Origin: Planctomycetota bacterium
GTDB lineage: Bacteria > Planctomycetota > Phycisphaerae > WQYP01
Direction of reading: 5' to 3'
Length of the DNA stretch: 64,000 nt
Assembly (NCBI GenBank): GCA_021800165.1
Contig: JAJYZF010000010.1
Location: 2,194 to 66,193, forward strand
Under the pieces are notes generated by a model. That model made no database searches. It saw only the letters and a list, made by a program, of their open reading frames with translations, and was not told where the DNA came from. The translations under genes and the position numbers were made by a program. Positions 13,701-30,432 of the stretch are shown here, piece by piece; within the stretch, counting starts at the first letter, position 1; every line of letters begins with the position of its first letter.

Positions 13701-14381
13701 AAAGCGGTACCGTTTTTCAAAGAACGTAATCGTCGGCCCTTGTTCCACCGGGCCGGAATGTCGGTGAACGGATACGGCCGGTCCGGCGGCCGCCAGCCAG
13801 GGGAACACCGATCTTTGCACTCCCAGCGTCAGCGTTTGCGGCATCAGTGGCCAAAGGATGGCCCACGTGAGCACCAACGGGGCGCAAAGACCGGCCCAGC
13901 GTATCAATTTGGCGGTGGAAACAGCTTGCTCCGGATCTACAGCGTGCACATCATCAGCCGCCTGGTTAATAACGTGATGAACCAACTGCGGCGATCCCAT
14001 AAAGGGGTCCGGTCGTTTTTGGGCAAATTCCACGGCACTTAGAAAAAGTTCTTGCGATTGCGGTATGAGAGCATCCATGGTAGATGCGGCCGCCTGCAGA
14101 TTTACCCTTCGCAGAGCTGGACCAAGCACCCGCAGACATAACCCCGCCGGCACCACCCAGACCAGCAGAGCCAACACCCAACGCAGCGCCAGGGGCATGT
14201 GCGTGAATTCTCCCAGCAGGAGCACCCCGGCCAAGGCGACCGCCAAACTTACAAAGAGCACCCGTAATACCGCCAGACTGATCCGCACACTACGCTGCCG
14301 CCGCGCCACGCTTTGTAGCGATTCATGCAAGTTATCGGGCATCCGCCCTTTCGTTGCTGGATTGAAATTGCGAGCCATCAT
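10794..14381 (-). CDS. Large membrane-anchored protein with a long Gln/Ala-rich coiled-coil region (hypothetical; possibly DUF4175-like).
   Basis: Two N-terminal TM helices lie within the first 190 aa. A globular domain of about 400 aa follows. The last 600 aa or so are dominated by A/Q/R/L heptad-like sequence. The protein ends ...FPSGYRRIIRNYYLRIADVRSVAASAQ. ATG at 14381 (MMARNF...) is preferred over the TTG at 14420. Confidence 0.5.
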   Translation of the reverse strand: MMARNFNPATKGRMPDNLHESLQSVARRQRSVRISLAVLRVLFVSLAVALAGVLLLGEFTHMPLALRWVLALLVWVVPAGLCLRVLGPALRRVNLQAAASTMDALIPQSQELFLSAVEFAQKRPDPFMGSPQLVHHVINQAADDVHAVDPEQAVSTAKLIRWAGLCAPLVLTWAILWPLMPQTLTLGVQRSVFPWLAAAGPAVSVHRHSGPVEQGPTITFFEKRYRFPAYTGLPEKIIHDHSGAIHGLFGSHVQVIIHTTELLAVGSRLMVNPNIGPPETLPLMAYGPRAYQAKLVLTHNATYAVVLVNRHGVKTISKHPWPVTVDAAWPPTIHILTPALTVRVRPDDHVPVVFSATDSYGISAIRALVWTDGSSPRTVNMTLPPKPAKAIKSSWIMAVQSQIRAAGRAAAHTIYYKLEALDNARPQAHFAMTARHELIVDAHLRHQYQTRQDNKLWKLLRKAIVQTLTAVKVGRTQVRVLVGWPRYRAVDPARKAAVADAAARVLRTGQTLAQQAKTLLASDFGAVAAQAIRVAHGPVQVAANDLARTGLAADQPRPISMPELARIGRMGLKRAQASLLRLLHTLDQAKARAALKNSLARLARRQHSIAQRLAHSGSRHLAYHDQQALAQQLQQLLRQHPSLQIPAAKHMAAAISQLAQQVATIVRRQAVENIDLHPAIFRQAQRSALEHLADQQQILNRQITRFNQRYKPTIAAASAQPVTPAMMRAVSRALESRGDAAVAREARNNIVQTLRAMARQLDRYAQQTQTPAAQHKFSQAKRDQASLNQLSRQVQTATATGQQPDAAQALHRMVPAADAIRRQVHHMLDENPPRRERANLLQARADAKQAVEQVTHQSGGAGASLLQKAYNHLAKATRDQTQHLESQKHLAQQATEAAMRARALASRQATLAARTAAAHHTPTAQAVENGQHQTAAAIARAIAEGRKLQQEARDGAPNVAEHLETALQQMQRADTAQAQAAAAQSTQDRQEAQNYQGQALAEMRTASGEMRTLAHNTSMGTRWQRPAGAGSPAAGSSQDGAGRTPSNTMTAVARHVQAALAAQPQALSGNAGAAIAAAQSLTRAWATLADALQSSAMAGGNHGKPGSGSASHSALGHAPGSAGTGLSGPLTSAGMVPLQITALGISPAQWEHLGPLQQLRLLNLARQKFPSGYRRIIRNYYLRIADVRSVAASAQ

Positions 14382-15313
14382 TGCCCATCCGCTTGAAACT
14401 CTGCCATGGCTTAAAATCAATTATACCCGATCTTCGGCCGCCACAGGCATCTTCAGCTTCAATAAAGGGAGGATACCGCTACTGGGGTGACCGGCGTTCT
14501 CCCCCGGTCAACAGCACGGCAATCCCGATTTAATAGGACCTGCGGAATATTCTCTTATTGTCGGGGTGGCAACCGGTCGAAAAAGCTACTATCCCGGCAC
14601 GGAGGCTATGTCGAGAGGCCAGGGATCGGTAGACAACTTTGCGTGGAAATGCCGGAGTAATGTTTAATGCCAGCCTCTTTGCGAATCACCCTGACCGATT
14701 CGTCGTTTGCTTTACGCATGCTACCCGGAGGTGACGCCGCAACTGCCACGGCCGCCGGCCGTTCTACAACAATTTCCGCTCCGCGCCATCGCATTCATGC
14801 TCATCCTGCGGCGAGCCGCCGGCTCAGGCACAGCGTTCGGTGCCAAGCAACACGACGATTGCCAAAACTCCTGGTTCCAGCGGGCACCACCTTTCCGATG
14901 TGAACATTCCATGGTCTAAACATGATGTCGCAGTTGGGACTGCGGGAGGTTGGGGGCGGCTTGGCTTTGGCCCGGTGGACAGATGGTCCATTTTCCACCC
15001 GCATTTTGTTGCGCGTTCGGGAGTTCGGCGGCAAGAATTGCTGAGGGTTTGGTGGCTTTTTTGGCGTGGCGGAAGCCCGGTGCTCCACGGCCCAATCCCA
15101 AAGGTCCCGTTAGTCGTTCGCAGACCGGGCCAAATGGTGGCGTAGCAGGAGGCGGACAATCCTTTCACCATGCCACCCGTACCCTCGCCGACCGCAAGGA
15201 ATTATCATTGCCGGTTTTGCCGCCCGGCAGACACCTCCCTTGCGTTCCACCGCCGGTCACCATGAAACTGCATCTATCCACAGAAATCGGTGAGCTGGTG
15301 TCATTTGACCTGC

Positions 15314-15343
15314 CTTGACAACTAACAGGATCCCGCGTACATT
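15314..15343 (+). promoter_or_regulatory. Sigma70-type promoter CTTGACA-N17-TACATT.
   Basis: ccttgacaactaacaggatcccgcgtacattat lies immediately upstream of the riboswitch aptamer. Confidence 0.5.
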
Positions 15344-15361
15344 ATTTTGTGGGACAACCAA

Positions 15362-15422
15362 AGGAGATGGAGTCCTCCCGTAACCGCCCGGATCGAGATA
15401 TCAGGGCTAATGACTCCTGGCG
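15362..15422 (+). ncRNA. Fluoride riboswitch (crcB motif), copy 2.
   Basis: AGGAGAUGGAGUCCUCCC-GUAACCGCCC-(GGAUCGAGAUAUCA)-GGGC-UAAUGACUCCUGG shows P1 GGAG/CUCC, a conserved AUGG.GU loop, and AACCGCCC paired to GGGC as P3. The 3' UAAUGACUCCU segment is complementary to the loop GGAGUC, giving the pseudoknot. All of this matches the crcB-motif consensus. Confidence 0.8.
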
Positions 15423-15594
15423 AGTGTCGATGCGCTCGATACGGGCTTGAAGGCAAGCCAGCGTTGAGGTGTTGGTAGCCGGGAATTGATGGTTGCGGGT
15501 AGTTTACAGGCTCCGTCGGATCCTACTACACACGAAAACTTTTCGCTCCGCAGCGACGCCGTAGCCACCCAATGGAATCGGTTGGCGGGTCCGT

Positions 15595-16566
15595 TTGTCA
15601 TGGAGAATCGCTTCAATGCCGCGGATGATAGCATATAACCTTTTGCAGGTGGCAGTGGTGCTGTTGGCCTCGCCGTTGGCGGTGGGCGTGCTCAACCGGC
15701 TCAAGGAGCGGGTACAGTCCAAACAGGGGTCAAGTATCTTTCAGGTGTACCGCGATATTTGGAAGTTATTCCACAAAGATCAGATTATTTCCGACCAAAG
15801 CACCTGGATTTTCCGCTTCACGCCTTACCTGATTTTTGCGGCCCCAATTTTAGTAACACTGCTGATTCCTGTGCTCACGAGTTATCCGCTGTTTTTTGCC
15901 TTTATGGGAGACATGCTGGGGGCTGGTTTTGTCCTGGCGCTGGGCGGATTTTTCGCAGCACTAGCCGCTGTGGACACAGGCAATCCGTATGGGGCGATGG
16001 GAGCGAGCCGCACCCGCATGGTCGGGTTTCTGGCCGAGCCGGTCTTTATGGTGGTGTTTTTCACGGTTTGTTTCGTGGCCAATTCCACCATTCCCTATAT
16101 TGTCCAGCAAACCTGGGTGCACCCGAAATCCAATTTTTTTGACCCATCGCACGTACTTATTGTTATTGCCTTTTTCATGCTTGTTCTTGCGGAAACGGGG
16201 AAAATACCCGTGGATAACCCGTCCGGCCATTTTGAATTGGCGATGATTGATGAATCCAAATCGCTGGAATATTCCGGGGCGGGCGCGGCCCTGGTGAAGT
16301 GGGGCGGCTGCATGAAATTTTTTGTTTTGCTGTGCGTGCTCCTCAATGTGCTCATCGCCCCGTGGGGCCTGGCTTCCGGAACAGGAATCGGCGATGTTGC
16401 CTGGGCAATTCCGCTGGTGTTGCTCAAAATCCTGGCCGCCATCCTAGCAATCACAGTGGTGGAAAGCTCGCTGGCGAAGTTGCGGCTGTTCCGGATTACG
16501 GCATTTCTAGGCCTGGCGCTGGTGGTGGCGGTGGCCGCCATGCTGGCACGTATGATGCGCATCTGA
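15595..16566 (+). CDS. Ehr/Hyf-type membrane subunit, NuoH/HycD family.
   Basis: LKERVQSKQGSSIFQVYRDIWKLFHKD matches the NuoH/HycD N-terminal loop. About 8 TM helices. The true start may be the ATG at 15615 or 15624. Confidence 0.7.
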   Translation: MSWRIASMPRMIAYNLLQVAVVLLASPLAVGVLNRLKERVQSKQGSSIFQVYRDIWKLFHKDQIISDQSTWIFRFTPYLIFAAPILVTLLIPVLTSYPLFFAFMGDMLGAGFVLALGGFFAALAAVDTGNPYGAMGASRTRMVGFLAEPVFMVVFFTVCFVANSTIPYIVQQTWVHPKSNFFDPSHVLIVIAFFMLVLAETGKIPVDNPSGHFELAMIDESKSLEYSGAGAALVKWGGCMKFFVLLCVLLNVLIAPWGLASGTGIGDVAWAIPLVLLKILAAILAITVVESSLAKLRLFRITAFLGLALVVAVAAMLARMMRI

Positions 16567-16570
16567 CCTG

Positions 16571-17263
16571 ATGGAGAAGCCGCCAATGGTAACGCACCCG
16601 ATCATGTCCTGGCTCAACGCTTGGAATCAACTGATGGCCGGCTTTTTCCTGCTTTGCAGCTTTGGACTTATTGCGGCGGCCCAGGTAACCGGCTGTATGC
16701 GCTTTTATGTTCTACAATCTCTGTTTCTCGCCTGTTCGGCGGCGTTGCTGGGCATGTTGGACAACAGCACCGATTTATTTATGGTCGCTGGCATCTATAT
16801 CATTGCCAAGGTGATCCTGATTCCCGTGCTCCTTAAACGCACGGCTCGCGAGGCAATGATCGCCCGGCGTGAACTGGTGCAGGTGATCGGGGTACCTTCC
16901 TCCCTGCTCATTGCGCTGGGCCTTACCCTGGTCGCCTATTATATCGCCCTGCCCCTGACCGCCGGAGCCAATAGCGGTACTCGAATCGGTCTACCCATTG
17001 GACTGGCAGCGGTTTTTATTGCGGCCTACACCATCACGGTACGGCGCGAAGCTTTGCCACAGATGCTAAGCCTGCTGGCCATTGAAAATGGGGCATTCTT
17101 TGCGGGCGACGCGATTGCTCCGCATTTTCCGCTTATTGGCGAACTTGCGGCGGTCTTCGATGTGCTGATGATCGTGTTGGTTCTGGGTGTGCTAAGCACA
17201 CAGGTGCACAGATCACTGGGCAATACGACCGTGGGTTCGCTGGCACAGCTTGGGGAGGATTAA
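16571..17263 (+). CDS. HyfE-like small membrane subunit of a group-4 hydrogenase-related complex.
   Basis: About 220-aa polytopic membrane protein lying between the NuoH-like and NuoM/N-like genes, the same position as hyfE in hyf operons. Confidence 0.5.
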   Translation: MEKPPMVTHPIMSWLNAWNQLMAGFFLLCSFGLIAAAQVTGCMRFYVLQSLFLACSAALLGMLDNSTDLFMVAGIYIIAKVILIPVLLKRTAREAMIARRELVQVIGVPSSLLIALGLTLVAYYIALPLTAGANSGTRIGLPIGLAAVFIAAYTITVRREALPQMLSLLAIENGAFFAGDAIAPHFPLIGELAAVFDVLMIVLVLGVLSTQVHRSLGNTTVGSLAQLGED

Positions 17264-17267
17264 AGAC

Positions 17268-18722
17268 ATGTGGATTGGCCTGACCTTGCTGTTGCCGGTG
17301 GTGGCGATATTGATCACGGCGCTGCCGGTGCGCGCCGCTGTCGCCGGGACGGCTGCGGCACTTCTGGCGGCGCTCAACGTGGCGGTGGCCGCGACAATCG
17401 CGGTGCAATTGGCTGGACACTCGCCGGTAACTTTGGTACCGGGGTGGTTGGCCATTGATTCATTTGGCGGAATCGTACTGTTGCTGGAAACATTCGGGGC
17501 CTTGACAGCCCTGCTTTTTTCCGTCGGGTATCTGAAATCGCCGCACATTTCAGACCGACGGCTCAAGCGGTATCTGCTGTGGCTTCACCTGTTCCTCTTG
17601 GCGCTGTATGCCATTCCACTGCTCAATGAACTGGCTTTGGTGTGGTTGGCCCTGACCTTGACTACGTTGTTTTCAGTCTTTCTGGTGAGCTTTGAACGTA
17701 CTCCCGCAGCGTTGGAGGCGGGTTGGAAATATGCCCTGCTTACCACCTTGGGAGCCGCCTTGGCACTCTTGGGAATTCTGCTGCTTTACTGGGCCCTTAC
17801 CAAGGCCGGAGGCTCAGATTTCACCTGGCATGGGCTGACCCGCGCCGCTGGGGAAATGCCCGGGAGCATTGTCAGTCTGGCGTTTCTTTTGATGCTGGTG
17901 GGTTTTGGCACCAAAGCGGCGTTGATACCGTTTCATGCCTGGCTGCCTGATGCTTACAGTCAGGCACCATTTCCGGTGTGCGCGATGCTGTCAATTCTGG
18001 AAAGCGTGGCGATACCATACGTGATTTTGCGTCTGGTTGGCACTATTGGCGCTGCGCATGGCAGCCACGCCCCACAGTGGCTGCTGGTATTTGGCCTGGT
18101 CTCGGCGGGGGGGGCGGCACTGCTGATTTTGCAAACGCGTGAGTACAAGCGGTTATTCGCGTATTCCACCATTGAAAACACCGGGATTATACTAACGGCG
18201 GGGGCCATGGCCTCCAACCATTTGAAGCAGGCGGCCCTGTGGCAAATGATTGCGCACGGGTTCACCAAGCCGGTCATTTTTCTGGCTGCGGGAATCATGT
18301 TCGTGCTGGTCGGCAAGCTGCGCATTTCCGAAGTTCGCGGGGTGTTATCAGCCTCGTGGGTGGTCGGTTCAGTGGTGATGTTGGCCGGACTGGCCCTGGC
18401 TGGAGCACCGCCTTTTGCGATTTTTTTAAGCGAGTTGGCGATCTTAAAAAGCGGTATGGTGGGCAGTCAGGCTTGGGTGGTGATGCTGCTGGCGGCTTTT
18501 ATGATCGTTTCATTTTGTGCCATCACCTATCACCTCTTCAGAATGGTTTTAGGCAAGGCCCCCGAGGACTCCGCCCGGGATCGGTCGGTTATTGCCATCG
18601 CTTGCTGGTGGGCGCTGGTGGTGGCCTTGGTTCCGGTGGTTGTATTAGGTTGGTGGATGCCTCCATTTCTGCACCATTTAATAACGGGTGGTGCTGCGGC
18701 TCTGGGAGGAACGTCGCCATGA
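17268..18722 (+). CDS. NuoM/NuoN/HyfF-type antiporter-like membrane subunit.
   Basis: Conserved antiporter-family blocks are present: FHAWLPDAYSQAP, AYSTIENTGII, KPVIFLAAGIMF. The ATG at 17268 follows the RBS ggggagga. Confidence 0.75.
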   Translation: MWIGLTLLLPVVAILITALPVRAAVAGTAAALLAALNVAVAATIAVQLAGHSPVTLVPGWLAIDSFGGIVLLLETFGALTALLFSVGYLKSPHISDRRLKRYLLWLHLFLLALYAIPLLNELALVWLALTLTTLFSVFLVSFERTPAALEAGWKYALLTTLGAALALLGILLLYWALTKAGGSDFTWHGLTRAAGEMPGSIVSLAFLLMLVGFGTKAALIPFHAWLPDAYSQAPFPVCAMLSILESVAIPYVILRLVGTIGAAHGSHAPQWLLVFGLVSAGGAALLILQTREYKRLFAYSTIENTGIILTAGAMASNHLKQAALWQMIAHGFTKPVIFLAAGIMFVLVGKLRISEVRGVLSASWVVGSVVMLAGLALAGAPPFAIFLSELAILKSGMVGSQAWVVMLLAAFMIVSFCAITYHLFRMVLGKAPEDSARDRSVIAIACWWALVVALVPVVVLGWWMPPFLHHLITGGAAALGGTSP

Positions 18723-20323
18723 CCAAATTCCCCTCCTCAGAGCTGCGCAACTTTGCCGAGCAATGCCAGAGCTTTGGCCCGGTCGAAATGCTCCCGCAAT
18801 CGGATTCACTCGTAGCGGTGGTCAACTGCCCGTCCGAGGTGCTCAAATCGCTGGCGGAGTTCCTCGTCCATTCCCTGCAGTATAATTTCGGATCATTGGT
18901 GGTGGAGGCACCCCCCAACCAATGGAAACTCATTTATTTGTTCTATGGCCGTGAAAACCCGTCTTTAGTGCAGCTATGGGTATACCTAAAATCGGACCAT
19001 CCACGGGTTGACTCCATCAGCGATAAAATTCACTCCGCCGATTGGCATGAACGGCAGGCGGAAGATCTGTTTGGATTGGTGTTTACGGGACATCCTCGGC
19101 TGGGCGATTTTGTCCTCCATGAGGAATGGCCCGAAGGCGTGAACCCCATGTGCACCGGGTTTAGCGCCACACATCCCGTAAAGGAGCAGGTGGTTGATCC
19201 CGCATGGCGGCCGGCGCGAATATTGGAAACGCCGGGGGCCTTTTTAATGCCCATCGGCCCGGTCTATGCGGACTATTACGAATCGGCGCAGTTTTTTCTG
19301 GAAACTGTCGGCGAAGATGTGGTGCGCATGATTCCACGCTTTTTTTTCAAATATCGTGGTGTGGAAAAACTGGCCGAGGGCCAGCCGTGGCAACGGGTGC
19401 TGCTGATGGCGGAACGATTTTCCGGAACCTCGGCCATTGCCCATTCCACGGCGCTATGTGCAGCGCTGGAACAGATCTACCAGATTCAGCCACCACCGCG
19501 AGCCTTGGGTCTGCGTCTGATTCTGGCGGAAATAGAACGCATACGTCATCACTTTGCGGTGCTCTCGGATATTTGCCACGCCTCGGGCATGTCGGTGCCG
19601 TCGGCCCAGATGGATATTCTGGAAGAACAAGCCCTGCGTTTAAGTGGTCAGTGTGCTGGACATCGTTACCTCTATGGTTGGGTGACGCTGGGGGGGCTTA
19701 ACCGGGATATGACGCTCACCGCCCTTGATACCATTGCCCGTGAAACGCAACTCCTGGCCAAAGCCTCCGCCACCATCCACAGCGCCCTGCAATTTACCAG
19801 CAGCTTTCTGGATCGCTTTGAAGGTGTTGGGGCCATCAGCGCGGCGGGTGCCCGGGAACTGGCTCTGGTAGGCCCTATCGCCCGGGCCAGCGGAGTCAGA
19901 ACAGATTTGCGGCTGATGTTGCCGTACGGGCCCTACGCACAAGATACCGGATTTTTGGCCATGACTGAGCCACTGGAACAGGAAGGGGATGGCTATGCCC
20001 GGATTCGCGTACTTTTTGCGGAAATCCAGCAATCCGTGAAGCTCATCGATGCGACGGTAGCTGCGTTGCCCACGGGGCCGGTGCGGGTGGAGGCTGGCGG
20101 TGTGCGGGGCCAAAGCGCATTTGGATGGGCGGAAGCTCCCAACGGCGCAGCGTTTCATTATGTTCGCCTGGATGCTCAGGGATGTGTGCAACGCTACCAG
20201 ATTGCCACACCGTCGTTTGCCAATTGGCATGGGTTTCATATTGCGGCGGAAAATTTTGCCTTCCAGGATTTTCCCATCATGATGGCTAGTTTTGGACTTT
20301 CCATCGCGGAATCGGATCGTTAG
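18719..20323 (+). CDS. Fused NuoC-NuoD-like large subunit (HycE/HyfG homologue) LACKING the [NiFe]-binding cysteines; Ehr-type.
   Basis: NuoC-like WHERQAEDLFGLVFTGHPRL. In the NuoD/HycE part, HRGIEK is conserved as YRGVEKLAEG. RFSGTSAIAH replaces the R-x-C-G-x-C-x3-H motif. The C-terminus ...PSFANWHGFHIAAENF...SIAESDR replaces DPCxxCxxR. ATGA overlap with the upstream gene. Confidence 0.8.
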   Translation: MTKFPSSELRNFAEQCQSFGPVEMLPQSDSLVAVVNCPSEVLKSLAEFLVHSLQYNFGSLVVEAPPNQWKLIYLFYGRENPSLVQLWVYLKSDHPRVDSISDKIHSADWHERQAEDLFGLVFTGHPRLGDFVLHEEWPEGVNPMCTGFSATHPVKEQVVDPAWRPARILETPGAFLMPIGPVYADYYESAQFFLETVGEDVVRMIPRFFFKYRGVEKLAEGQPWQRVLLMAERFSGTSAIAHSTALCAALEQIYQIQPPPRALGLRLILAEIERIRHHFAVLSDICHASGMSVPSAQMDILEEQALRLSGQCAGHRYLYGWVTLGGLNRDMTLTALDTIARETQLLAKASATIHSALQFTSSFLDRFEGVGAISAAGARELALVGPIARASGVRTDLRLMLPYGPYAQDTGFLAMTEPLEQEGDGYARIRVLFAEIQQSVKLIDATVAALPTGPVRVEAGGVRGQSAFGWAEAPNGAAFHYVRLDAQGCVQRYQIATPSFANWHGFHIAAENFAFQDFPIMMASFGLSIAESDR

Positions 20324-20335
20324 GAGATTAAAGCC

Positions 20336-21091
20336 ATGTTCGGATGGTTTGTGAAGGGTGCCACGTCACGGGTAAGAACCACGCGCTATCCCGCACACGA
20401 CGAAACTGCGCCTGGCGTTACCCCTGGCCGTCCCGTAGAGACCACTTGTGACAACGAATTGCTCGCTATTGGCCTGGCCGCCACCTGCCCCACGGGCGCA
20501 ATCAAGCCCGCAGCGTTCAAGACGACTGCGGATATTTCTCGGTGTGTACACTGCATGGCTTGCACACGCGGCGAAAATACCATGAGTTGGCAGGCAGATT
20601 ACCGCTGGGCCAAATGGGTTGGCGACAACGCGCGACGTGCCGCCCGCCACCGCCCATTTCGAAAATCGCTCCATATTCGTGTGGTGGATACCGGTTCCTG
20701 TGACGCGGTCCTTAGTGAAATCAAACAGCTTGTCAAACCATATTACAACATGCACCGCCTCGGCTTTTTTATCACCCCCACGCCGCGGCACGCCGATGTG
20801 CTTATGGTCGCCGGGCCGGTCACCAGCCAGATGCGTCTGGCTCTATTAAAAACCTACGCTGCTATGCCCGAACCGAAATGGGTGATGGCGGTGGGCAATT
20901 GTGCCATCAGCGGATGTGTTTTTGCTCCCAGTTTTATTGCCAACGGGTCGGTGGCGGGTGTTATTCCCTTGGATGTACAGGTACCCGGCTGTCCACCACC
21001 ACCGCTGGCAATTTTACACGGCTTGCTGCTTTTAACCGGGCGCGAGGCCGAAATGCCACCCGTGGACCAGCCTCTCGGAGGTACCCCATGA
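20336..21091 (+). CDS. Fused ferredoxin-like (NuoI/HycF-type, degenerate) plus NuoB/HycG-type small subunit.
   Basis: C-terminal half reads SLHIRVVDTGSCDAVLSEI...RHADVLMVAGPVTSQM...PEPKWVMAVGNCAISGCVF...VPGCPPPP, so the NuoB fold retains 3 of the 4 N2-type Cys. The N-terminal half has CPTGAI and CVHCMAC only, giving incomplete CxxCxxCxxxCP motifs. Confidence 0.7.
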   Translation: MFGWFVKGATSRVRTTRYPAHDETAPGVTPGRPVETTCDNELLAIGLAATCPTGAIKPAAFKTTADISRCVHCMACTRGENTMSWQADYRWAKWVGDNARRAARHRPFRKSLHIRVVDTGSCDAVLSEIKQLVKPYYNMHRLGFFITPTPRHADVLMVAGPVTSQMRLALLKTYAAMPEPKWVMAVGNCAISGCVFAPSFIANGSVAGVIPLDVQVPGCPPPPLAILHGLLLLTGREAEMPPVDQPLGGTP

Positions 21092-23241
21092 CCATTCTGC
21101 CGGCGCTATTTTTTCTCGCCATGATTGCGTTGTGCGTCACCGGAGCGACGCTTTCAGCTTGCGTGGCTCAGCACCGCATCGGCCCATTGCTGGCGGTGAC
21201 CGGACCCCTGGCCTCACTGATGATTCTGGCCTGCGCAACATGCGTTTTGATCACCCGACAACCGATGCAAATTGACCTTTGGCATTTGCCGCTCTTGGGA
21301 TTGCTGCGCCTGCGGTTGGATTCAGTGTCGGCGCTGTTTGTGCTGGCCTTGGGCATTTCATTTTTACCGGCGTACCTGTTCTCTAAAAGTTATATGAACC
21401 GGTATCCAGCGCATTACAACATTCGCGGCTTTGGAATTTTTTTCCATCTTCTGCTGATGGCCTGCACGCTGGTTCTAGCCGCCGGCGATGTAGTTACGTT
21501 CCTGTTCACGTGGCGATTGATGTCAGCATTGGCAACTTTCCCCATCACCTTGGAACATCGTCAGGATGAGCATCGCCGGGCTGGATACATTTTTCTGGCC
21601 ATGAATGAAGCGGGAATTATTCTTGCCACCGTTGGCTTGCTTTTAATGACCGCGTGGGCGGCGGGCCATATCGGATTTGCGGCGTTGCACCAGGCCATGG
21701 AGCATATCCCGGACGGATGGCGCTGGGCGATTTTTCTGATTATCTTTGCAGGCTTTTCCGTCAAAGCCGGACTGGTTCCCGTCAGTTCCTGGCTACCGCG
21801 GGCCCATCCGGTGGCCCCCGCCAATATGTCCGCCGTTTTATCGGGCTGTATGCTCAATTTCGGCATCTACGGCATCATCCGTTTTGACGCCATCATCATG
21901 GCTCCCATCACGGCAGGACCAGGCCTTGTTGTTTTGGCCATCGGAGGCCTCTCGGCCCTGCTGGGTATTTTATATGCCACCACTGATAACGACCTTAAAC
22001 GCATGCTGGCCCACAGCTCCATTGAAAACCTGGGCATTGTTGCGGTGGATGTCGGTGCGGGGATGGTTTTTGATGCTTATCACATGCCCACCATCGCGGC
22101 CATTGCCTGGGTCGTGGCGATTTACCAGATGATCAACCATTCCGCCTATAAAACGCTTCTGTTTTTGGGCGCTGGTGCCATCGACCATGGTACCGGCACG
22201 CGCGACATGAACCGCCTGGGCGGGCTGCTTAAACGCATGCCGGTGACAGCGGTATTATTTTTGGTTGGTGCGCTGGCTATTTCCGCCATGCCGCCGTTTA
22301 ATGGCTTTGTTAGCGAATGGCTAACGCTGCAAACCATTTTGCGCTCCACCGAACTCGCATCGCGCTTCAGCAGGGTGGTTTTTGCGCTCTGCGGTGCCAG
22401 CTTGGCGTTGACGGCGGCATTGTCCGTCACCTGTTTTGTGAAGACCTTTGCGATGAGTTTTCTTGGATTGCCTCGCAGTGATACCGTCCGCACCGCGATG
22501 GAAAGCCCGCCGTCCATGCGCCTGGCCATGGGAATCCTGGCCGTGGGCTGCATCGCGCTGGGTCTTGGAGCCACATGGATGGTTCCGCTGGTGGACCGCG
22601 CCATGACTCCGCTGACCCACCAGTTGGCCGCCAACGCCCTGGTTCCGCCGTTTTTTACACTCCAACACGGTAACGCCCAATTCAGCCGGGGCTTTCTGAC
22701 CAGTTTTGGCAAAATTGGGGCTGACGTCGGCAGCGCGGTTATTCCAGCACGCAGCCTGGTTGTTCTCCATCAGGGCCAAGCCGCTAATCCGGTGGTTTAT
22801 GCCATGTCTACCTTTTATATAGCCGCAGTGCTGATCGGGATCATGTTGATCGTCTATCTGCTGGTGCGCCTTACCACGCGCCGGCGCGTGGTACGTGTCG
22901 GCGAACCTTGGGCCGGTGGATTGCGCCGCCTCTGGCCGGATATGTCCTACAGCGCTACGGGGTTTTCAAATCCGGTGCGAGTCATATTCAAGTCGATCTT
23001 CAGCCCCGCCCAGCGCGAAGATTCCCAAGTCGCGGTGGCCGGCCATTTCCGCACCGCCATCCGCAAACCTCCGCGAGACACCTACATCGTCGATCGCCTA
23101 TTCCTGCTACCCCTGGTTGCCGGGGTAAAATTGCTTGCCGGATTGATGGCCCGTCTGCATCGGCCCGCAGTGGTCAATGCCTATGCGGCCTGGGTGTTTA
23201 TCGTGCTTCTTTTTGTGCTGGTTATGAATCGTTTATTTTAA
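21088..23241 (+). CDS. NuoL/HyfB-type antiporter-like membrane subunit with a C-terminal extension.
   Basis: SWLPRAHPVAPANMSAVLSG, AHSSIENLGIV and KTLLFLGAGAIDH are NuoL/MrpA-family blocks. ATGA overlap with the upstream gene. Confidence 0.75.
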   Translation: MTILPALFFLAMIALCVTGATLSACVAQHRIGPLLAVTGPLASLMILACATCVLITRQPMQIDLWHLPLLGLLRLRLDSVSALFVLALGISFLPAYLFSKSYMNRYPAHYNIRGFGIFFHLLLMACTLVLAAGDVVTFLFTWRLMSALATFPITLEHRQDEHRRAGYIFLAMNEAGIILATVGLLLMTAWAAGHIGFAALHQAMEHIPDGWRWAIFLIIFAGFSVKAGLVPVSSWLPRAHPVAPANMSAVLSGCMLNFGIYGIIRFDAIIMAPITAGPGLVVLAIGGLSALLGILYATTDNDLKRMLAHSSIENLGIVAVDVGAGMVFDAYHMPTIAAIAWVVAIYQMINHSAYKTLLFLGAGAIDHGTGTRDMNRLGGLLKRMPVTAVLFLVGALAISAMPPFNGFVSEWLTLQTILRSTELASRFSRVVFALCGASLALTAALSVTCFVKTFAMSFLGLPRSDTVRTAMESPPSMRLAMGILAVGCIALGLGATWMVPLVDRAMTPLTHQLAANALVPPFFTLQHGNAQFSRGFLTSFGKIGADVGSAVIPARSLVVLHQGQAANPVVYAMSTFYIAAVLIGIMLIVYLLVRLTTRRRVVRVGEPWAGGLRRLWPDMSYSATGFSNPVRVIFKSIFSPAQREDSQVAVAGHFRTAIRKPPRDTYIVDRLFLLPLVAGVKLLAGLMARLHRPAVVNAYAAWVFIVLLFVLVMNRLF

Positions 23242-23253
23242 GAAAGGTAAGTT

Positions 23254-24525
23254 ATGTTGATTGAATCGGTCACCGCCCTGGAAATACTGGATTCGCGGGG
23301 CAATCCTACTCTCAAGGTTACCGTCCACCTCGAAGATGGCACGCGGGCTGGCGCTTGGGTACCTTCTGGAGCCTCCACGGGTGAACATGAAGCCGTTGAG
23401 CTGCGCGATCACGACCAACAACGCTACGGCGGCAAGGGAGTGTTGAAGGCAGTGGCCGCGGTGAACACCGCCATCGCTTCACGCCTGGCAGGCATGGATG
23501 TTACCCGACAGGAAGAGGTGGATCGGGCGCTCATCGAAGCCGACGGCACGCCCAATAAAAGCCACCTTGGAGCCAACGCCATTTTAGGCACCTCCATGGC
23601 GGTGGCACGGGCGGCGGCCATAGTTCAGCGTGTACCATTATATCAGTATCTGGGCGGCACGAACGCGGCCCGCCTGCCAGTGCCGATGATGAATATTCTC
23701 AACGGCGGAAAGCACGCGGATAATTCGCTGGATTTTCAGGAATTCATGATTATGCCGGTGGGTGCTTCGTCCTTTGCCGAGGCCTTGCGCTGGGGTGTGG
23801 AAACATTTCACGCACTCAAATCCATTCTGCACGCGCGCGGTTACTCCACAGCGGTGGGCGACGAAGGTGGATTCGCCCCGAGTTTAAAGCGCAACCACGA
23901 AGCCTGCGAGCTTATTGTGGAGGCCATCACCGCGGCAGGCTATCAACCGGGCCGGCAAATCGCCTTGGCCATAGATCCCGCAGCCAGTTCTTTTTACCGC
24001 GACGGCAAATATCACCTCGAAAAGTCGGGGGAGGGGGTTAAAACCAGTGCGGACATGACCAATCTGTTTGCATCATGGCTGGATCAATACCCCATCGTGT
24101 CCCTTGAAGATGGCCTGGACGAAAACGACTGGGACGGTTTTAAAGCCCTGACTGCGGCCCTGGGCCGACGCGCGCAGATTGTCGGCGATGACATTTACGT
24201 GACCAATACACGCTTTATCGCCCGCGGCATTCGTGAACACACCAGTAACGCGGTGCTGATTAAACTGAATCAAATCGGTACCGTGTCCGAAACCACTCAG
24301 GCGGTGCAAATGTGCAAACTGGCGCAATGGAAATGGGTTATTTCCCACCGCTCCGGAGAAACCGAGGATGCCTTTATGGCTGACTTTGCCGTCGCCATGG
24401 GCGGCGGCCAGATTAAAACTGGATCTGCGTGTCGGTCTGAACGCATCGCCAAATATAACCGTCTGCTGGAAATTCAGGCGGAACTTGGTGCCAAGGCCGA
24501 TTTCAGCAATCCATTGGTATCCTGA
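23254..24525 (+). CDS. eno: Enolase (phosphopyruvate hydratase).
   Basis: [29 protein letters not shown]...[15 protein letters not shown]...[13 protein letters not shown]...SHRSGETED: canonical enolase throughout. RBS agaaagg. Confidence 0.95.
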
Positions 24526-24548
24526 CCGGGCTTATTGCGGGAGTTTCC

Positions 24549-26552
24549 ATGGGCGGCCTGAACGAAAATCATCGGCGACACCTGCTTTTGGCATTTCAGC
24601 ATGTGGATGAAACCTTGGGCCGGGCCTATGCGGCCGTTCGCCAAGGCGGGAGTGATTCTCCATTTCCGGCCTTCAAGTATGATGTCGCGCTCGACCAGGA
24701 TCGCGTCATTGCCACGTACCTCAACGAGTTACGACGGGCGATGGTCAGAATTATCAACGCCCATGGTATAACGATCCCCGAGGCGCAAATCAGTGCCCTG
24801 TGGGCCTTCCGCAGTGCGCTCCTGGCTGTCAGCAATACCATTGAAGAGTTGCGCCCAGAGTATATGGCTGGTTTTGGTGCTGTGGATGAAGCTGCCAGAG
24901 CGGATCTACAAATGATATCTGCGGAGCTTCTCAACATCATCGATCGATTGAGCAAAAGTCTTGCGGAGGTGCCTACCCATGATATTGCAACGCGGTTGCA
25001 CCAACTCAAGAGTCGCGACGGGGTCGCCACCCTCGCCCGCCGACTTGACGAGATCATCACCCGGCGGAACCTGGTGGAAATTCGGCCGGCGCTGGCCGTG
25101 CTCGTTGAGCGCATGGAACACGCCGAGATTGAAATTGCCGTGTTTGGCCGAGTGAGCTCGGGCAAGTCGTCGCTTCTGAATTTTCTCTGGCAGCATGAAA
25201 TTTTGCCGGTAGGGGCGGTTCCCATTACCACCATTCCCACGCAACTCAGCCACGGCCAGGTCGTCCAAGTGACGGTGAAGATCGGCACTGATCAAGTCAG
25301 GGTTATTGATCCGGATCAAATCAAAGATTTTGTCACCCAGGCCGGCAACCCGGACAATCGCAAGCATGTGACGGCGGTCCAGATCGAGTTGCCCAGCTCA
25401 CGCATGGGCCCAGGTGTCGCTTGCGTGGACACGCCCGGACTTGGATCCCTTGGAGGGCAGGGATCGGCCCATGCACGGGCCTATCTGCCCCGTTGCGATA
25501 TCGGCCTGGTGCTGGTTAGCGCTACTGTCGGATTAACCGACTTGGATATTGAATTGGTTGATGCATTGCGACGGGCCGGGGCTGAAATCATGGTATTGCT
25601 GACCAAGGCCGATTTGCTTCCAGAACACGATCTTGCCTCGGTCTTGGCATACGCCCAAACGCGGCTTCACCAACTTTCAGAGTATCCTCCTGGCCTCTAT
25701 GGTATAAGTGTGCGCCCACCGCGGACACAATTGACGCTGGACTGGTTTGAGAAGCGCTTAGCTCCTCTGCTGGGCCGGGCTGCCGCGCTTCGCGATGCTT
25801 CCATCCACCATAAACTTCAGCAGCTTGGTAGTACAGTGGTCGACGTTCTCAAGCGGCGGGAGCAAGCCGCGGATTCGGTGGTGCCGGGCCAGCAGGATAC
25901 CATTATCCACGCGCTGCTTGCACAGGCCACGACGGTTTTAGATGCCGCAGGGCGTGTCAGTCCGGCGAGCCTGCCAACGGCGCGTCAATTGGCGGAAGAC
26001 ATCATCAACCAGACATCGCAGGTATGCTCTCAAGAACCATGGGACGAGGCGGCGGTGTCCGAAAAATTTGCTTCCGTGGCCCAAGCCGTAGTTGCGCATG
26101 GAGTTCATCATGCCGTCGAGTCGTTGACCATCGCTCGTGCTCAGGTCGAAATGTCGCTGAAGATGGCCTCAAAGTCGCTAGCCAATGCCAGGTACGAAGA
26201 TTTGCCGTCTATCTCAGGGGTGCCTGTTTTTGATCCGACACAACTTCTGGCCGGTGTCCGAATGCATGCGCCCGCGTGGACGGTAATCAACGCATCCATG
26301 CGACGCCACGCTGTGGCCGCGCAACTTCGGGAATTGCTGCAATCCCGCCTGGAGGAATTGCTGGCTGATTACAACAGCAGGTTCTGGCAGTGGCGCCGCA
26401 ACATGCTGGGTGAATTAAGCACCCACTATAACGCTACCGCCGCAGTGCTCCGCAGTTTGGTGGTTACGAGTGCGGATCATTCCGACGGTTCTGTGTCGGA
26501 GGATATTGCCGATTTGGAACACGCCATGGCCCAATTCGCCTCGCCCTGTTGA
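24549..26552 (+). CDS. Bacterial dynamin-like GTPase.
   Basis: G1 GRVSSGKSSLLN, G2 Thr in ITTIPT, G3 DTPGLGS, G4 TKADLL. Long helical regions flank the GTPase domain. Starts 24 bp after the eno stop. Confidence 0.7.
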   Translation: MGGLNENHRRHLLLAFQHVDETLGRAYAAVRQGGSDSPFPAFKYDVALDQDRVIATYLNELRRAMVRIINAHGITIPEAQISALWAFRSALLAVSNTIEELRPEYMAGFGAVDEAARADLQMISAELLNIIDRLSKSLAEVPTHDIATRLHQLKSRDGVATLARRLDEIITRRNLVEIRPALAVLVERMEHAEIEIAVFGRVSSGKSSLLNFLWQHEILPVGAVPITTIPTQLSHGQVVQVTVKIGTDQVRVIDPDQIKDFVTQAGNPDNRKHVTAVQIELPSSRMGPGVACVDTPGLGSLGGQGSAHARAYLPRCDIGLVLVSATVGLTDLDIELVDALRRAGAEIMVLLTKADLLPEHDLASVLAYAQTRLHQLSEYPPGLYGISVRPPRTQLTLDWFEKRLAPLLGRAAALRDASIHHKLQQLGSTVVDVLKRREQAADSVVPGQQDTIIHALLAQATTVLDAAGRVSPASLPTARQLAEDIINQTSQVCSQEPWDEAAVSEKFASVAQAVVAHGVHHAVESLTIARAQVEMSLKMASKSLANARYEDLPSISGVPVFDPTQLLAGVRMHAPAWTVINASMRRHAVAAQLRELLQSRLEELLADYNSRFWQWRRNMLGELSTHYNATAAVLRSLVVTSADHSDGSVSEDIADLEHAMAQFASPC

Positions 26553-26575
26553 TCGACCCGCAAGCCCACTTTGGA

Positions 26576-27315
26576 TCAAAAGAGTTTTCCAGTTTCCAAA
26601 ATGCGTTGCAATCCCGCCTTATCCACGGAGGAAGCATTTATTTTATCGAGTGCCGCGATAGCCTCACGCACAGAATACTCCACGCGGCGCAAGGTAATTG
26701 TGCCATCATCCCACACCGCATAAGAGGCTCTGGGATCGCCATCCAGCGGCTGGCCTACCGATCCTGGGTTTACCAGTTGCCTATTGATATAAGGCCGCAC
26801 GTAAGGCAGGTGCGTGTGGCCCACCATGAGCACATCTCCCAGCGGACCATTGCCCAAATATTCTGTGAGCTTGTTAATGGAAAGATCCGGCGTGAGGCGA
26901 TAATCATAAAGAGGGTCTGTGCGCGATGCGTGAACCACATCAAAAGTTGTACATTGGAATCCCAGGTCAGACGAATCGGCAGGTGCTTCAGCCAGCGGAT
27001 ATCCAGAAGGCTTAGTTGTCCCATAGTCCAGTCGCGCATGGCCAATGCCAGGTGCGCCTTGGTCGGGTTGGCACGAGGGTGCTGGTTATGGGCCACCGCG
27101 TAATCGTGATTGCCGCAAACCGTGATCGCCTGATGACTTTTGAGCCAGGCGATACAGGCTCCGGGATCTGGGCCGTAATTTACCACATCGCCGCCGCAGA
27201 GCACGTAGTCAAAGGCCCCGCAATCCTTGGCGACAGCGTTCAAAGCCCAGGGATTGCCGTGAAGATCAGAAATAAGCAAGACACGCATCTGCGGTACTCC
27301 GTAAAAAGCCTTCAC
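26576..27315 (-). pseudogene. Metallophosphoesterase (YfcE/MJ0936-like), interrupted by a frameshift near 26950-26990.
   Basis: Frame A: MRVLLISDLHGN...GDVVNYGPDP...CGNHD...LKHLP. Frame B continues (T)FDVVHASRTDPLYDY...GHTHLPYV...NPGSVGQP. A switch between frames is needed to reconstruct the complete phosphoesterase fold. The tail of frame A is non-conserved. Confidence 0.55.
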
Positions 27316-27883
27316 GCGAAGGCTTTTCCGGATCTACCGGAGATCGGGATTCAGATTGCAGGGGAAACAGCAATCGTTTCCTGACGCCTGCCAATCGGGC
27401 CGTTCGCACGAAGCAGGAGTCATCAGTCTCGGGGACGAGACGGTTCCGGCGAACTCCATCGCCTTAATCTGCCTACTCCATACTACGCGGGCACCAGGCC
27501 AAATTCAACACGCCCATTTACATCTCACCCTACACCTGGGCAACGCGCCCCGGGGTGTGGCAATGTTTCCCAAAAATGCAATGGCGTAGGAGACTTGGGA
27601 TATTTTAAAACCCGGGCCACCGAATTCAGCACCCCGGATTGGCCCGAGGATCCGATGGTATAAGAACGTGCATCTGAAACATTCATGAAGCAAGCCAGTG
27701 CCTGTTTTATTCCAGCGCAGGCCGAAATCCTCCGGCCGCAGCGAGTCCAAACCACGGGCGTGGCATACCATCCCGGTGTCGAAGCTGAAAACTTTGGTCG
27801 GGCGATCATAGGAAACATACTTTAAACATAGGCGGCTAAAAGCCAAGCCTGATTATCGCGGACGATGGTCCGCAGGGGTTGGT

Positions 27884-27912
27884 TTGACAACTTCATCGCC
27901 CTCCCATTAGAC
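27884..27912 (+). promoter_or_regulatory. Putative promoter (TTGACA-N17-TTAGAC) for the crcB riboswitch transcript.
   Basis: tttgacaacttcatcgccctcccattagac lies about 15 nt upstream of the aptamer. The -10 is weak. Confidence 0.35.
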
Positions 27913-27927
27913 TTTGCTCGTCGTATG

Positions 27928-27996
27928 GTAGGTGATGGAGTTCACCTGAACCGTCCCTGTTCGGCCTCAAGGGCCTGGGGACTGATAACTCCTGAC
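27928..27996 (+). ncRNA. Fluoride riboswitch (crcB motif), copy 1.
   Basis: AGGUGAUGGAGUUCACCU-GAACCGUCCC-(extra hairpin GGCCucaagGGCC)-GGGAC-UGAUAACUCCUGAC. P1 is AGGUG/CACCU. Pseudoknot pairs GGAGUU with AACUCC. P3 pairs GUCCC with GGGAC. Confidence 0.8.
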
Positions 27997-28028
27997 GGCT
28001 GGACCGTCGGGGGTTTGTGCATGGCCGA

Positions 28029-28067
28029 CCCTGGCGGATCAAAAATCAGCCGGGGTTGTTTTGTCTT
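28029..28067 (+). terminator. Intrinsic terminator (the riboswitch expression platform).
   Basis: A CCCUGGC/GCCGGGG 7-bp stem with a 13-nt loop is followed by UUGUUUUGUCUU. Confidence 0.55.
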
Positions 28068-28093
28068 CGGATCAATCTCTTTGGAGCAGCGTT

Positions 28094-28477
28094 TTGAAAA
28101 AGGTATTTTGGGAATGTCTAGCGGTCGGCGGCGGCGGTTTTATTGGTACGTTGGCCCGATTTTTGGTGGCCCGTTTATTTTCCGGTTCGCCATTTCCGGT
28201 GGGAACCATGCTCATCAACCTTAGCGGCAGTCTTTTCTTGGGCTGGTTTGCCACTGTGGCCGGGAACCGCTTGCCCATGTCGGAAAATTTGCGGTTGGCT
28301 GTGGCGGTGGGCTTTGTGGGAGCGTACACCACTTTTTCAACCTATATGTTTGAATCCAACCGAATGTTGGAGGATGGTGCGGGCTTGCGGGCCATGTTTT
28401 ACATCCTCGGGAGTGTCATGCTTGGTCTGCTGGCGGTGCGACTGGGCGTCATTCTGGGCCACCGCATGAACGGTTAG
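28094..28477 (+). CDS. crcB: Fluoride ion channel CrcB/FluC.
   Basis: GGGGFIGTLARF...GTMLINLSGSLFLG...GFVGAYTTFSTY carries the hallmark CrcB motifs. TTG start at 28094 follows ggag. The ORF-track start at 28061 would overlap the terminator U-tract. Confidence 0.85.
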   Translation: MKKVFWECLAVGGGGFIGTLARFLVARLFSGSPFPVGTMLINLSGSLFLGWFATVAGNRLPMSENLRLAVAVGFVGAYTTFSTYMFESNRMLEDGAGLRAMFYILGSVMLGLLAVRLGVILGHRMNG

Positions 28478-28538
28478 CGTACCGGAAGACGACGGTGGCC
28501 AGGGCATGGATATTTTCCGGTTCTGTAAGGAGTCGGCC

Positions 28539-29303: not shown

Positions 29304-29368
29304 CGATCCCGACAAAAATCACGCCAGGCAACTGCCGGAATTACGGTCCGGTGCGTATAATCCCCAGT

Positions 29369-30367: not shown

Positions 30368-30432
30368 TCCACCGCTGCCAAGACCGTCCGCCGACGATTT
30401 GCACATACCGCCTTTTTTTAGGAGTTTTAGCG

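Follow-up and report, generated by a model that had tools for sequence, protein, structure and literature searches.

Fluoride riboswitches of the crcB-motif class (Rfam family RF01734) were reported in 2010 in front of genes that carry the annotation "formate hydrogen lyase" (Weinberg 2010, PMC2864571), and a 2024 review citing Baker 2012 counts formate hydrogenlyase (FHL) among the enzymes most commonly associated with these riboswitches, reads the association as a shift to fermentation, and lists Na+/H+ antiporters and enolase as common targets (PMC11139923). Two groups of related complexes without a NiFe site have also been described. The energy-converting-hydrogenase-related (Ehr) complexes of Marreiros et al. 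(2013), in the passages of PMC6349859 and PMC4758237 that describe them, combine Mrp-like subunits with a group-4-like large subunit that lacks the Ni/Fe ligands, and the Hyq complex of Azorhizobium and Rhizobium (hyqRBCEFGI) has a HyqG in which NuoC and NuoD are fused (NuoC::D) and both CxxC motifs are missing, together with a HyqI that keeps four cysteines (PMC3357923). Here we analyze a locus of this kind in a 64,000-nucleotide stretch of contig JAJYZF010000010.1 ("the window"; all positions count from its first letter), whose source is a Phycisphaerae relative. A fluoride aptamer there heads six genes for a membrane complex related to hydrogenases and complex I (hereafter the cassette), followed by genes for enolase (eno) and a dynamin-family GTPase (Table 1). 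The locus as a whole is best explained, with a probability of roughly 0.7, by a fluoride riboswitch that controls an Ehr-type operon.

Sequence Searches and Relatives

The window was scanned whole with Rfam, in which RF01734 has a gathering score of 34, and the promoter consensus scan covered positions 14400-30500 (~16 kb). To collect relatives, 18 large subunits were aligned and the genome collection was scanned with the resulting pattern, which yielded 420 tblastn-confirmed members; the locus counts given below refer to the best 80 of these 420 (loci are numbered with the prefix L), linkage was assessed in the 70 loci with sufficient upstream DNA, and residue counts for the large subunit refer to 81 family sequences. 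Aptamers in these loci were searched with a covariance model of our own (R1) built from 31 copies found by regular expression, which replaced a model made from the window's three copies after the MAFFT alignment of the latter proved out of register. Applied to the 80 loci (1.31 Mb), the model returned 133 aptamers. Within the genome collection, a Phycisphaerae metagenome-assembled genome (MAG; L001) stands closest to the window, with 86% identity in the large subunit and 91% in the leader.

A Fluoride Aptamer Heads an Eight-Gene Operon

The first aptamer matches RF01734 with 49.3 bits (E = 1.2e-10) over model positions 1-64 of 64, i.e., at full coverage, and scores 61.4 bits with R1. The original prediction, made without database searches, had placed an aptamer at 15362-15422, which is the core of this match, and had offered the Rfam search as a possible refutation; the score lies above the gathering threshold. 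The structural elements it named are all present and can be read directly in the sequence: P1 (GGAG 15363-15366 with CUCC 15375-15378), P3 (GCCC 15386-15389 with GGGC) and the pseudoknot (GGAGUC 15369-15374 with GACUCC 15412-15417), in which 14 of 14 helix and pseudoknot pairs form. In an alignment of 130 related aptamers, pairing holds in 97.3% of cells, and compensatory double changes occur at 13 of the 14 pairs; five of the six pseudoknot pairs covary although the search model did not include the pseudoknot. The observed values were reached in 0 of 500 shuffles and in no slid control.

The promoter candidate ends 11 nt before the aptamer and predicts a transcription start near 15350. It is the joint best match in the scanned region, the other 10/12 site lying just before the third aptamer of the window. 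Promoter-like matches occur at chance number overall, and only the placement of the 10/12 sites is informative; what survives of the sigma70-like promoter proposed at the outset is a 10/12 match just before the aptamer, as a consensus match only. On these sequence grounds we consider the aptamer confirmed as a genuine fluoride riboswitch in the predicted 5'-untranslated region (5'-UTR) of same-strand fluoride-response genes, with fluoride/Mg2+ binding expected from its class. The 5'-UTR assignment follows from the promoter-like site upstream, the enolase in the operon, crcB in the same island and the conservation of the arrangement.

Downstream, the genes are those originally listed (NuoH-, HyfE-, NuoM/N-, NuoCD-, NuoI-NuoB- and NuoL-like, then eno and a dynamin-like GTPase), all on the same strand and tightly packed, with intergenic gaps of 4, 4, -4, 12, -4, 12 and 23 nt in gene order, both -4 values being ATGA overlaps; the gaps before eno and the GTPase gene had been given as 13 and 24 nt and are corrected here. 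A Shine-Dalgarno-like motif is found at every start of the eight genes. The consensus scan found no terminator-like sites beyond chance between the operon genes. Because the upstream neighbor (10794-14420) lies on the opposite strand, no read-in is expected, and the GTPase gene is followed by a convergent gene, which ends the operon. No terminator or promoter pattern suggests that transcription is driven from elsewhere, an outcome that the original prediction had named as refuting. Aptamer 1 and the eight genes thus quite probably form one 11.2-kb operon (15350-26552).

A narrower reach of the riboswitch, limited to the first gene or genes while eno and the GTPase gene or even the whole operon are driven by internal or other promoters, is improbable. 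Weak promoter-like matches do lie inside eno (23696-23724) and the GTPase gene (25330-25358), and in several relatives (L018, L021, L030) eno follows the cassette with an aptamer of its own and is therefore a separable module. These matches, however, reach only 9/12 and occur at chance frequency, the 12- and 23-nt gaps leave no room for a terminator, and other Phycisphaerae string phosphoesterase, eno and cassette behind one aptamer.

Table 1. Features of the predicted fluoride-responsive region of the window and comparable GTPase genes in relatives.
Feature	Position	Strand	Basis or remark
Sigma70-like promoter candidate, TTGACA-17-TACATT	15315-15343	+	10/12 consensus positions
Fluoride riboswitch aptamer (aptamer 1)	15354-15426	+	RF01734; P1, P3 and 6-bp pseudoknot
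Leader, ~190 nt	15427-15615	+	between aptamer 1 and the ATG of the NuoH-like gene
NuoH/HyfC-like membrane subunit, 316 aa	15616-16566	+	PF00146, 6e-30; very high family conservation
HyfE-like small membrane subunit, 230 aa	16571-17263	+	NF008556 (hydrogenase 4 membrane subunit), 3.9e-18, below curated cut-off
HyfF/NuoN-like antiporter-like subunit, 484 aa	17268-18722	+	alternative TTG start at 17250
Fused NuoC-NuoD/HycE-like large subunit, 534 aa	18719-20323	+	without [NiFe] ligands
Ferredoxin-like + NuoB/HycG-like fusion	20336-21091	+	cysteines for two [4Fe-4S] clusters
HyfB/HycC/NuoL-like antiporter-like subunit, 717 aa	21088-23241	+	profile matches and channel residues
Enolase (eno), 423 aa	23254-24525	+	Enolase_C 1e-117, Enolase_N 2e-57; sole copy in the window
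Dynamin-family GTPase, 667 aa	24549-26552	+	PF00350 (Dynamin_N), 1.1e-20; last gene of the operon
Second fluoride aptamer	27407-27472	-	RF01734, 53.3 bits; heads metallophosphoesterase gene 27315-26576
Third fluoride aptamer	27922-28001	+	RF01734, 40.8 bits
Genes behind aptamer 3	crcB 28061-28477; 2xDUF190 28506-29303; membrane protein 29351-30367	+	gene calls, Pfam
Dynamin-family GTPases in fluoride islands	L038:4244-6073(-), L044:2269-4068(-), L048:3628-5451(+), L026:3416-5188(-), L032:2321-4078(-)	as marked	loci of relatives
Dynamin-family GTPases, continued	L021:1648-3465(-), L037:4824-5078(+), L083:2820-4568(+), L088:1985-3835(+)	as marked	loci of relatives

Linkage of the Cassette to Fluoride Aptamers

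Of the 70 assessable loci, 68 have an aptamer on the same strand ahead of the large-subunit gene; the loci span more than eight phyla (Planctomycetota, Desulfobacterota, Nitrospirota, Acidobacteriota, Alpha- and Gammaproteobacteria, Verrucomicrobiota, Bacteroidota and others), and the six cassette genes follow in the same order in every locus. The aptamer is mostly ~3.1-3.6 kb upstream of the large-subunit gene, just in front of the cassette; seven loci have it ~5.1-5.5 kb upstream, six of these being Phycisphaerae with phosphoesterase and enolase first and the seventh (L037) having a dynamin-like gene first. One of the two exceptions, L005, we regard as truncated and no true exception, because its contig starts inside enolase and the sister contig L004 carries the upstream aptamer. 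In the other (L048), a model match 6.4 kb upstream heads a string of dynamin and cassette genes and is below the Rfam gathering score. When the seven weakest leader matches were re-tested with Rfam, six passed the gathering score and one (L032) failed. Sister clades in the Firmicutes at ~30-36% identity, from Lucifera butyrica, Desulfosporosinus sp. PR, an Alicyclobacillus-like contig and a Desulfotomaculales MAG, keep both the gene order and the aptamer in front, while the Hyq operon of Rhizobium leguminosarum, taken as a negative control, has no fluoride aptamer. The six-gene complex is near-obligately linked to a fluoride sensor across many phyla and is therefore probably a dedicated component of bacterial defense against fluoride.

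The Phycisphaerae loci L002, L004, L006, L007, L012 and L024 have the order aptamer, phosphoesterase, enolase, cassette, followed in L002, L006 and L024 by a dynamin-like GTPase, and since this arrangement differs from that of the window the modules have been shuffled within one regulon.

Two loci are unusually rich in aptamers. In Lucifera butyrica (L083:4620-4882(+)), three tandem aptamer matches stand within 260 nt before the cassette, two of which pass Rfam and the third only the model, and these 17 kb hold four further aptamers, which precede MutS-related, dynamin and GGGtGRT-neighbor genes. The plasmid of Alicyclobacillus sp. ALC3 from acid mine drainage (L082, NZ_CP066785) carries five aptamers that pass Rfam, or seven by our own model, in 17 kb. 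One of them (10704-10764(-)) precedes the gene of a sigma factor of the sigma-70 family, an arrangement suggestive of a cascade from riboswitch to sigma factor, and another (7786-7846(+)) precedes a NiFe-less NuoCD-like gene that stands alone, with no genes for membrane subunits close by. This copy raised the idea that the large subunit might act alone, which we consider less likely, given that its closest relatives all carry the full cassette; the solitary gene is more likely a remnant of rearrangement.

The Large Subunit Is That of Neither a Hydrogenase nor Complex I

Taken at face value, much about the large subunit would point to a real formate hydrogenlyase or energy-converting [NiFe] hydrogenase with which fluoride shifts metabolism to fermentative H2 production: its nearest solved structure is HycE of the Escherichia coli FHL (7Z0S_E, 8.7e-50), homologues are annotated as "formate hydrogenlyase subunit 5" or "Ni,Fe-hydrogenase III large subunit," and the review cited above reads the riboswitch association in this way (PMC11139923). 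The ligand residues argue otherwise. The HycE motif RVCGICGFAH (RxCGxCxxxH) aligns with ERFSGTSAIAH in the window and DPCxxCxxR with GLSIAESDR, and the four positions of the [NiFe]-ligand cysteines, aligned to HycE, are S234, S237, S527 and E530. Cysteine occurs at these positions in 0, 0, 1 and 0 of the 81 sequences, the full set in none; instead the family has S/A/T/N, S/A/T/G, S (80 sequences, with one C) and E (81/81). No FdhF-like, HycB-like or Hyp/HycI maturation gene is present among the eight operon genes or their immediate neighbors, the Pfam annotation precomputed for the surroundings of the cassette in six relatives shows none either, and the NCBIfam matches of the complex subunits, like those of the GTPase, all fall far below the equivalog or curated cut-offs. 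Judged by these residues, none of the FHL-annotated targets examined, in 81 close family members and six more distant relatives, is a hydrogenase, and a hydrogenase function at this locus is extremely unlikely. A fluoride-induced shift to fermentative H2 metabolism is unsupported because the FHL-annotated targets lack the NiFe site.

Complex I does not fit either. The positions of its quinone ligands (H224 and Y273 in E. coli NuoCD) are occupied in the window by Tyr186 and Gly235, as counted from the alignment. NuoEFG (the N module) and NuoA/J/K were not found in the operon, whose only small membrane subunit is the HyfE-like protein, itself without a Pfam match. By its sequence the predicted complex is neither a [NiFe] hydrogenase nor a complex I. 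The large subunit has nevertheless not decayed, since conservation reaches 97% or more at 111 of its positions in sequences from more than eight phyla, among them E231, R232, H241, S527 and E530 at the former metal site.

The Iron-Sulfur Ligands Are Retained

The "cysteine-less" label that the original prediction attached to the Ehr-type module holds for the four NiFe positions, with Ser, Ser, Ser and Glu in their place, and does not extend to the other cysteines, which are conserved. In the fusion subunit the ferredoxin-like domain has Cys51, Cys70, Cys73 and Cys76 and the NuoB/HycG-like domain Cys122, Cys189, Cys194 and Cys219; the cluster cysteines are 91-100% conserved, the four of the ferredoxin-like domain 97-100%. 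The fourth ligand of the NuoB-type cluster covaries perfectly, with Cys125/Gly194 in 62 sequences and Val125/Cys194 in 13 (the window, L001-L007, L009, L012, L019, L022 and L024), and there are no mixed cases except four sequences that keep Cys125. This fourth ligand appears to have moved in the Planctomycetota clade, and the perfect covariation of residues 125 and 194, where the canonical second Cys is Val, argues that both [4Fe-4S] clusters are under selection.

A conserved pocket at the end of conserved clusters could also mean that the NiFe-less site carries out a specific fluoride-stress chemistry, reducing a soluble or membrane substrate or a quinone, with pumping secondary or absent and the complex serving as a fluoride-insensitive stand-in for an energy-conserving enzyme that is sensitive to fluoride. 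The conservation of the former metal site and of the FeS ligands would fit such a role, as would the proposal that the NiFe-less Hyq of Azorhizobium reacts with quinone (PMC3357923) and the presence in the fluoride regulon of enolase and phosphatases as extra copies of fluoride-inhibited enzymes (PMC11139923). Against it, the quinone-ligand positions hold Tyr186 and Gly235, the Hyq operon itself is not riboswitch-controlled, and two antiporter-like subunits with invariant Lys/Glu are always present, which argues for ion translocation. We therefore rate pocket chemistry as the principal function unlikely, if still worth keeping in mind.

Antiporter-Like Subunits

In both antiporter-like subunits the Lys of transmembrane helix 7 (TM7), the His/Lys of TM11 and the Glu of TM12 are invariant across the family. 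The TM5 Glu, a residue important for proton pumping in complex I, is replaced by Arg in 16 of 68 sequences of the HyfB-like subunit (the window and 15 relatives) and by Thr, Ala or Ser in 19 of 73 sequences of the HyfF-like subunit, the window included. The replacements in the window are Thr at residue 136 of the HyfF-like protein (counted from the TTG at 17250) and Arg at residue 144 of the HyfB-like protein (counted from 21085). L001-L007, L009, L010, L012, L019, L022, L024, L041 and L042 have likewise replaced this Glu; the other family members keep it.

A buried Arg-Lys pair of this kind could bind an anion, and, together with the Thr, Ala or Ser of the HyfF-like subunit and the near-obligate tie to a fluoride sensor, it raises the idea that the complex moves fluoride itself, as a redox-driven anion pump or F-/H+ exchanger, at least where the TM5 Glu became Arg. 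The Glu persists, however, in about three quarters of the family, and these members are equally riboswitch-linked; a dedicated exporter, CrcB, is already present in the same island. We know of no precedent for anion transport by Mrp/Nuo-type subunits, and regard fluoride transport as very improbable. With NiFe and quinone-site ligands gone, and FeS ligands and most of the charged antiporter residues kept, the predicted complex is instead best classed as Ehr-type and not as a formate hydrogenlyase.

Leader and Regulatory Logic

Neither the consensus scan nor our own scan for hairpins and T-tracts found a hairpin with a U-tract in the leader (15427-15615), and the leader of L001 is likewise free of a terminator of this kind. 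Within the leader, 15478-15517 can pair with either half of the aptamer, at 15412-15421 and at 15366-15384; this alternative helix is kept in L001, where substitutions preserve pairing but are one-sided, with no compensatory changes. A C-rich, G-poor stretch follows at ~15520-15575, and GGAG stands 9 nt before the ATG at 15616. The long-range alternative helix or Rho-dependent control could serve as the expression platform.

Elsewhere in the family the logic is easier to read. A hairpin and T-tract follow the aptamer in 37 of 69 cassette leaders, and in ~20 of these 37 the 5' arm of the terminator starts at GACUCCU, the 3' strand of the pseudoknot. Such an overlapping terminator is the classical arrangement for a fluoride ON switch by anti-termination in the crcB-motif class (PMC2864571, PMC8752731). 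From the behavior of the class, and from the relatives whose terminator overlaps the 3' pseudoknot strand, we infer that the window's riboswitch is an ON switch as well.

Small open reading frames (ORFs) between the aptamer and the NuoH-like gene were considered and rejected. ORFs of 76-81 aa occur there in several loci and might have encoded a conserved seventh subunit, but their translations are unrelated, and the window's own 52-codon leader ORF lacks its start codon in L001.

Proposed Function

Transcription from the promoter at ~15315-15343 would yield a riboswitch-controlled message for a six-subunit, hydrogenase-4/FHL-related membrane complex, enolase and a GTPase. As cytoplasmic fluoride rises, the aptamer, with Mg and F bound, would fold its pseudoknot and the operon would be expressed. 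The complex would then take electrons from a low-potential donor such as ferredoxin, pass them to an acceptor and use the transfer to expel H+ or Na+, which would restore the cytoplasmic pH and membrane potential drained by HF entry and by F- exit through Fluc/CrcB. The extra enolase would replace the fluoride-inhibited enzyme, and the GTPase may serve membrane maintenance. The physiological setting is established: HF enters as a weak acid, acidifies the cytoplasm and lowers the proton-motive force, on which fluoride export depends (PMC11139923). A redox-driven H+ or Na+ pump that offsets the cycle of HF entry and F- exit fits best because it accounts for the FeS wire, for two cation channels that look intact and for an expression that would be confined to fluoride; the assignment remains tentative, at somewhat less than even odds.

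Several observations weigh against the pump or against the riboswitch control upstream of it. In the window's Planctomycetota/Acidobacteria subclade, other residues take the place of the TM5 Glu in both antiporter-like subunits, and canonical proton pumping may therefore be altered or lost there. No electron donor or acceptor gene was found in the operon or conserved around it. On the regulatory side, no canonical terminator or nearby sequestor of the ribosome-binding site is visible in the window's leader, whose fold has a z-score of only -1.45 and is not stabler than shuffled sequence. In two relatives, L087 (a Ktedonobacteraceae MAG) and L088 (a JGI contig), only sub-threshold aptamer matches precede the cassette, which sits there among MutS-related, DUF190, dynamin and Usp genes. 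Finally, the linkage was counted in the best 80 of the 420 confirmed relatives, and the other 340 lie outside that count.

Complex I and the energy-converting hydrogenases have widespread relatives in the Ehr-type complexes, for which no substrate or physiological role is known, and here one large clade of them is almost always tied to a sensor of known specificity. The linkage offers fluoride as an inducer and, as phenotypes to look for at low pH, fluoride tolerance, internal pH and membrane potential, in carriers of the cassette that can be cultivated, such as Lucifera butyrica and Desulfosporosinus. It also corrects the textbook-level "formate hydrogen lyase" reading of the fluoride regulon. 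A bolder proposal would make the cassette a dedicated fluoride-stress machine with new chemistry, either the first Ehr with a defined role (an anti-uncoupling pump) or a fluoride translocator, and the GTPase an unrecognized member of the regulon; taken as a whole we find this doubtful.

The Fluoride Island and Other Riboswitch Neighbors

Three aptamers make 15.3-30.4 kb of the window a fluoride island. GC content is flat across the region (0.54-0.59), with no compositional sign of a horizontally acquired island. On its upstream side, the ORF at 10794-14420(-) encodes 1208 aa without a Pfam match and is divergent from the operon, from whose promoter-like site it is separated by ~900 bp of apparently non-coding DNA. 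The metallophosphoesterase gene behind the second aptamer is split by a frameshift into the overlapping ORFs 26770-27315 and 26576-26938 on the minus strand, while relatives have a single ORF of 236-239 aa (L019:7321-8040, L002:1118-1828); it is either a frameshift pseudogene or the product of a sequencing error.

The third aptamer is preceded by the second 10/12 promoter-like site (TTGACA-18-TAGACT, 27884-27913), which ends 9 nt upstream, and has an overlapping terminator-like hairpin (CTCCTGACGG..CCGTCGGGGG TTTGTG). The last gene behind it, at 29351-30367(+), encodes a 338-aa multi-pass membrane protein without Pfam or NCBIfam match, a homologue of which (405 bits) is found in L002 at ~13256(-).

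Dynamin-family GTPases of ~580-615 aa stand directly behind their own aptamers in seven loci and are present in further fluoride islands (Table 1). Proteins with MutS domain V (~505-545 aa) lie directly behind aptamers in six cases (L058:12301-13932, L023:2130-3674, L019:8636-10192, L006:3128-4645, L006:1070-2620 and L065:5699-7240), and MutS-related proteins co-occur with the cassette in L083 (Lucifera), L087 (Ktedonobacteraceae) and L088. A "mutS" class of crcB-motif targets had already been noted in 2010 (PMC2864571).

Comparison With Known Systems

With the known crcB-motif riboswitches the window shares aptamer architecture, conserved nucleotides, 5'-UTR position and the kinds of target (crcB, enolase, phosphoesterase, FHL-annotated and MutS-related genes); unlike typical members, the first aptamer has a long leader (~190 nt) without an overlapping intrinsic terminator. 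The locus is a further case of a published riboswitch-target pairing and ordinary in terms of riboswitch biology. The novelty first claimed for it must be narrowed accordingly, the association of the crcB motif with FHL genes having been in print since 2010 (PMC2864571), while a NiFe-less, near-obligate target was not found stated in the literature searched. That literature likewise held nothing that links the fluoride riboswitch to Ehr/hydrogenase-related complexes or to dynamin. What appears unreported is that the targets are NiFe-less, have kept their FeS clusters and are linked near-obligately to a fluoride sensor across phyla.

For the GTPase, the bacterial dynamin-like proteins DynA, BDLP, LeoA and IniA are presumably the proper comparison. 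It shares with such proteins the Dynamin_N domain, the G1, G3 and G4 motifs (in its translation, the P-loop GRVSSGKS, DTPG and TKAD) and a long helical C-terminal part, but has no close named family and sits in a fluoride regulon, an association found in no paper searched.

Among solved structures, the subunits of E. coli Hyc/Hyf (7Z0S) match best (HycE 8.7e-50, HycC 5e-59, HycG 9e-26), and the subunit types HyfC, E, F, G, H/I and B are held in common. The window complex differs in lacking the four NiFe cysteines, FdhF, HycB/HyfA, the maturation genes and HyfD, in the fusion of its ferredoxin-like and small subunits, with one 4-Cys set only, and in its gene order C-E-F-G-(HI)-B. Complex I (Q and P modules) and the Pyrococcus MBH and MBS (6CFW, 6U8Y) have homologous NuoB-, C-, D-, H- and L/M/N-type subunits with Lys/Glu channel residues and, in common with the window complex, an FeS chain to a NuoD-like pocket; in contrast to complex I, the window lacks NuoEFG and the quinone ligands, and the TM5 Glu is replaced in its subclade.

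Hyq has six subunits of the same types. We rejected the identification of the family with Hyq in view of the ~30% identity to the Rhizobium HyqG region, the different gene order and the absence of an aptamer: HyqB is encoded first, whereas the HyfB-like gene is last in the window's cassette, HyqI has no ferredoxin-like domain, and the Hyq operon has a protein regulator. The Ehr examples in print have been considered alongside formate dehydrogenase partners or as intermediates in evolution, and none was found reported as fluoride-regulated; with them the window shares the NiFe-less large subunit together with NuoB-like, NuoH-like and Mrp antiporter-like subunits in one cluster.

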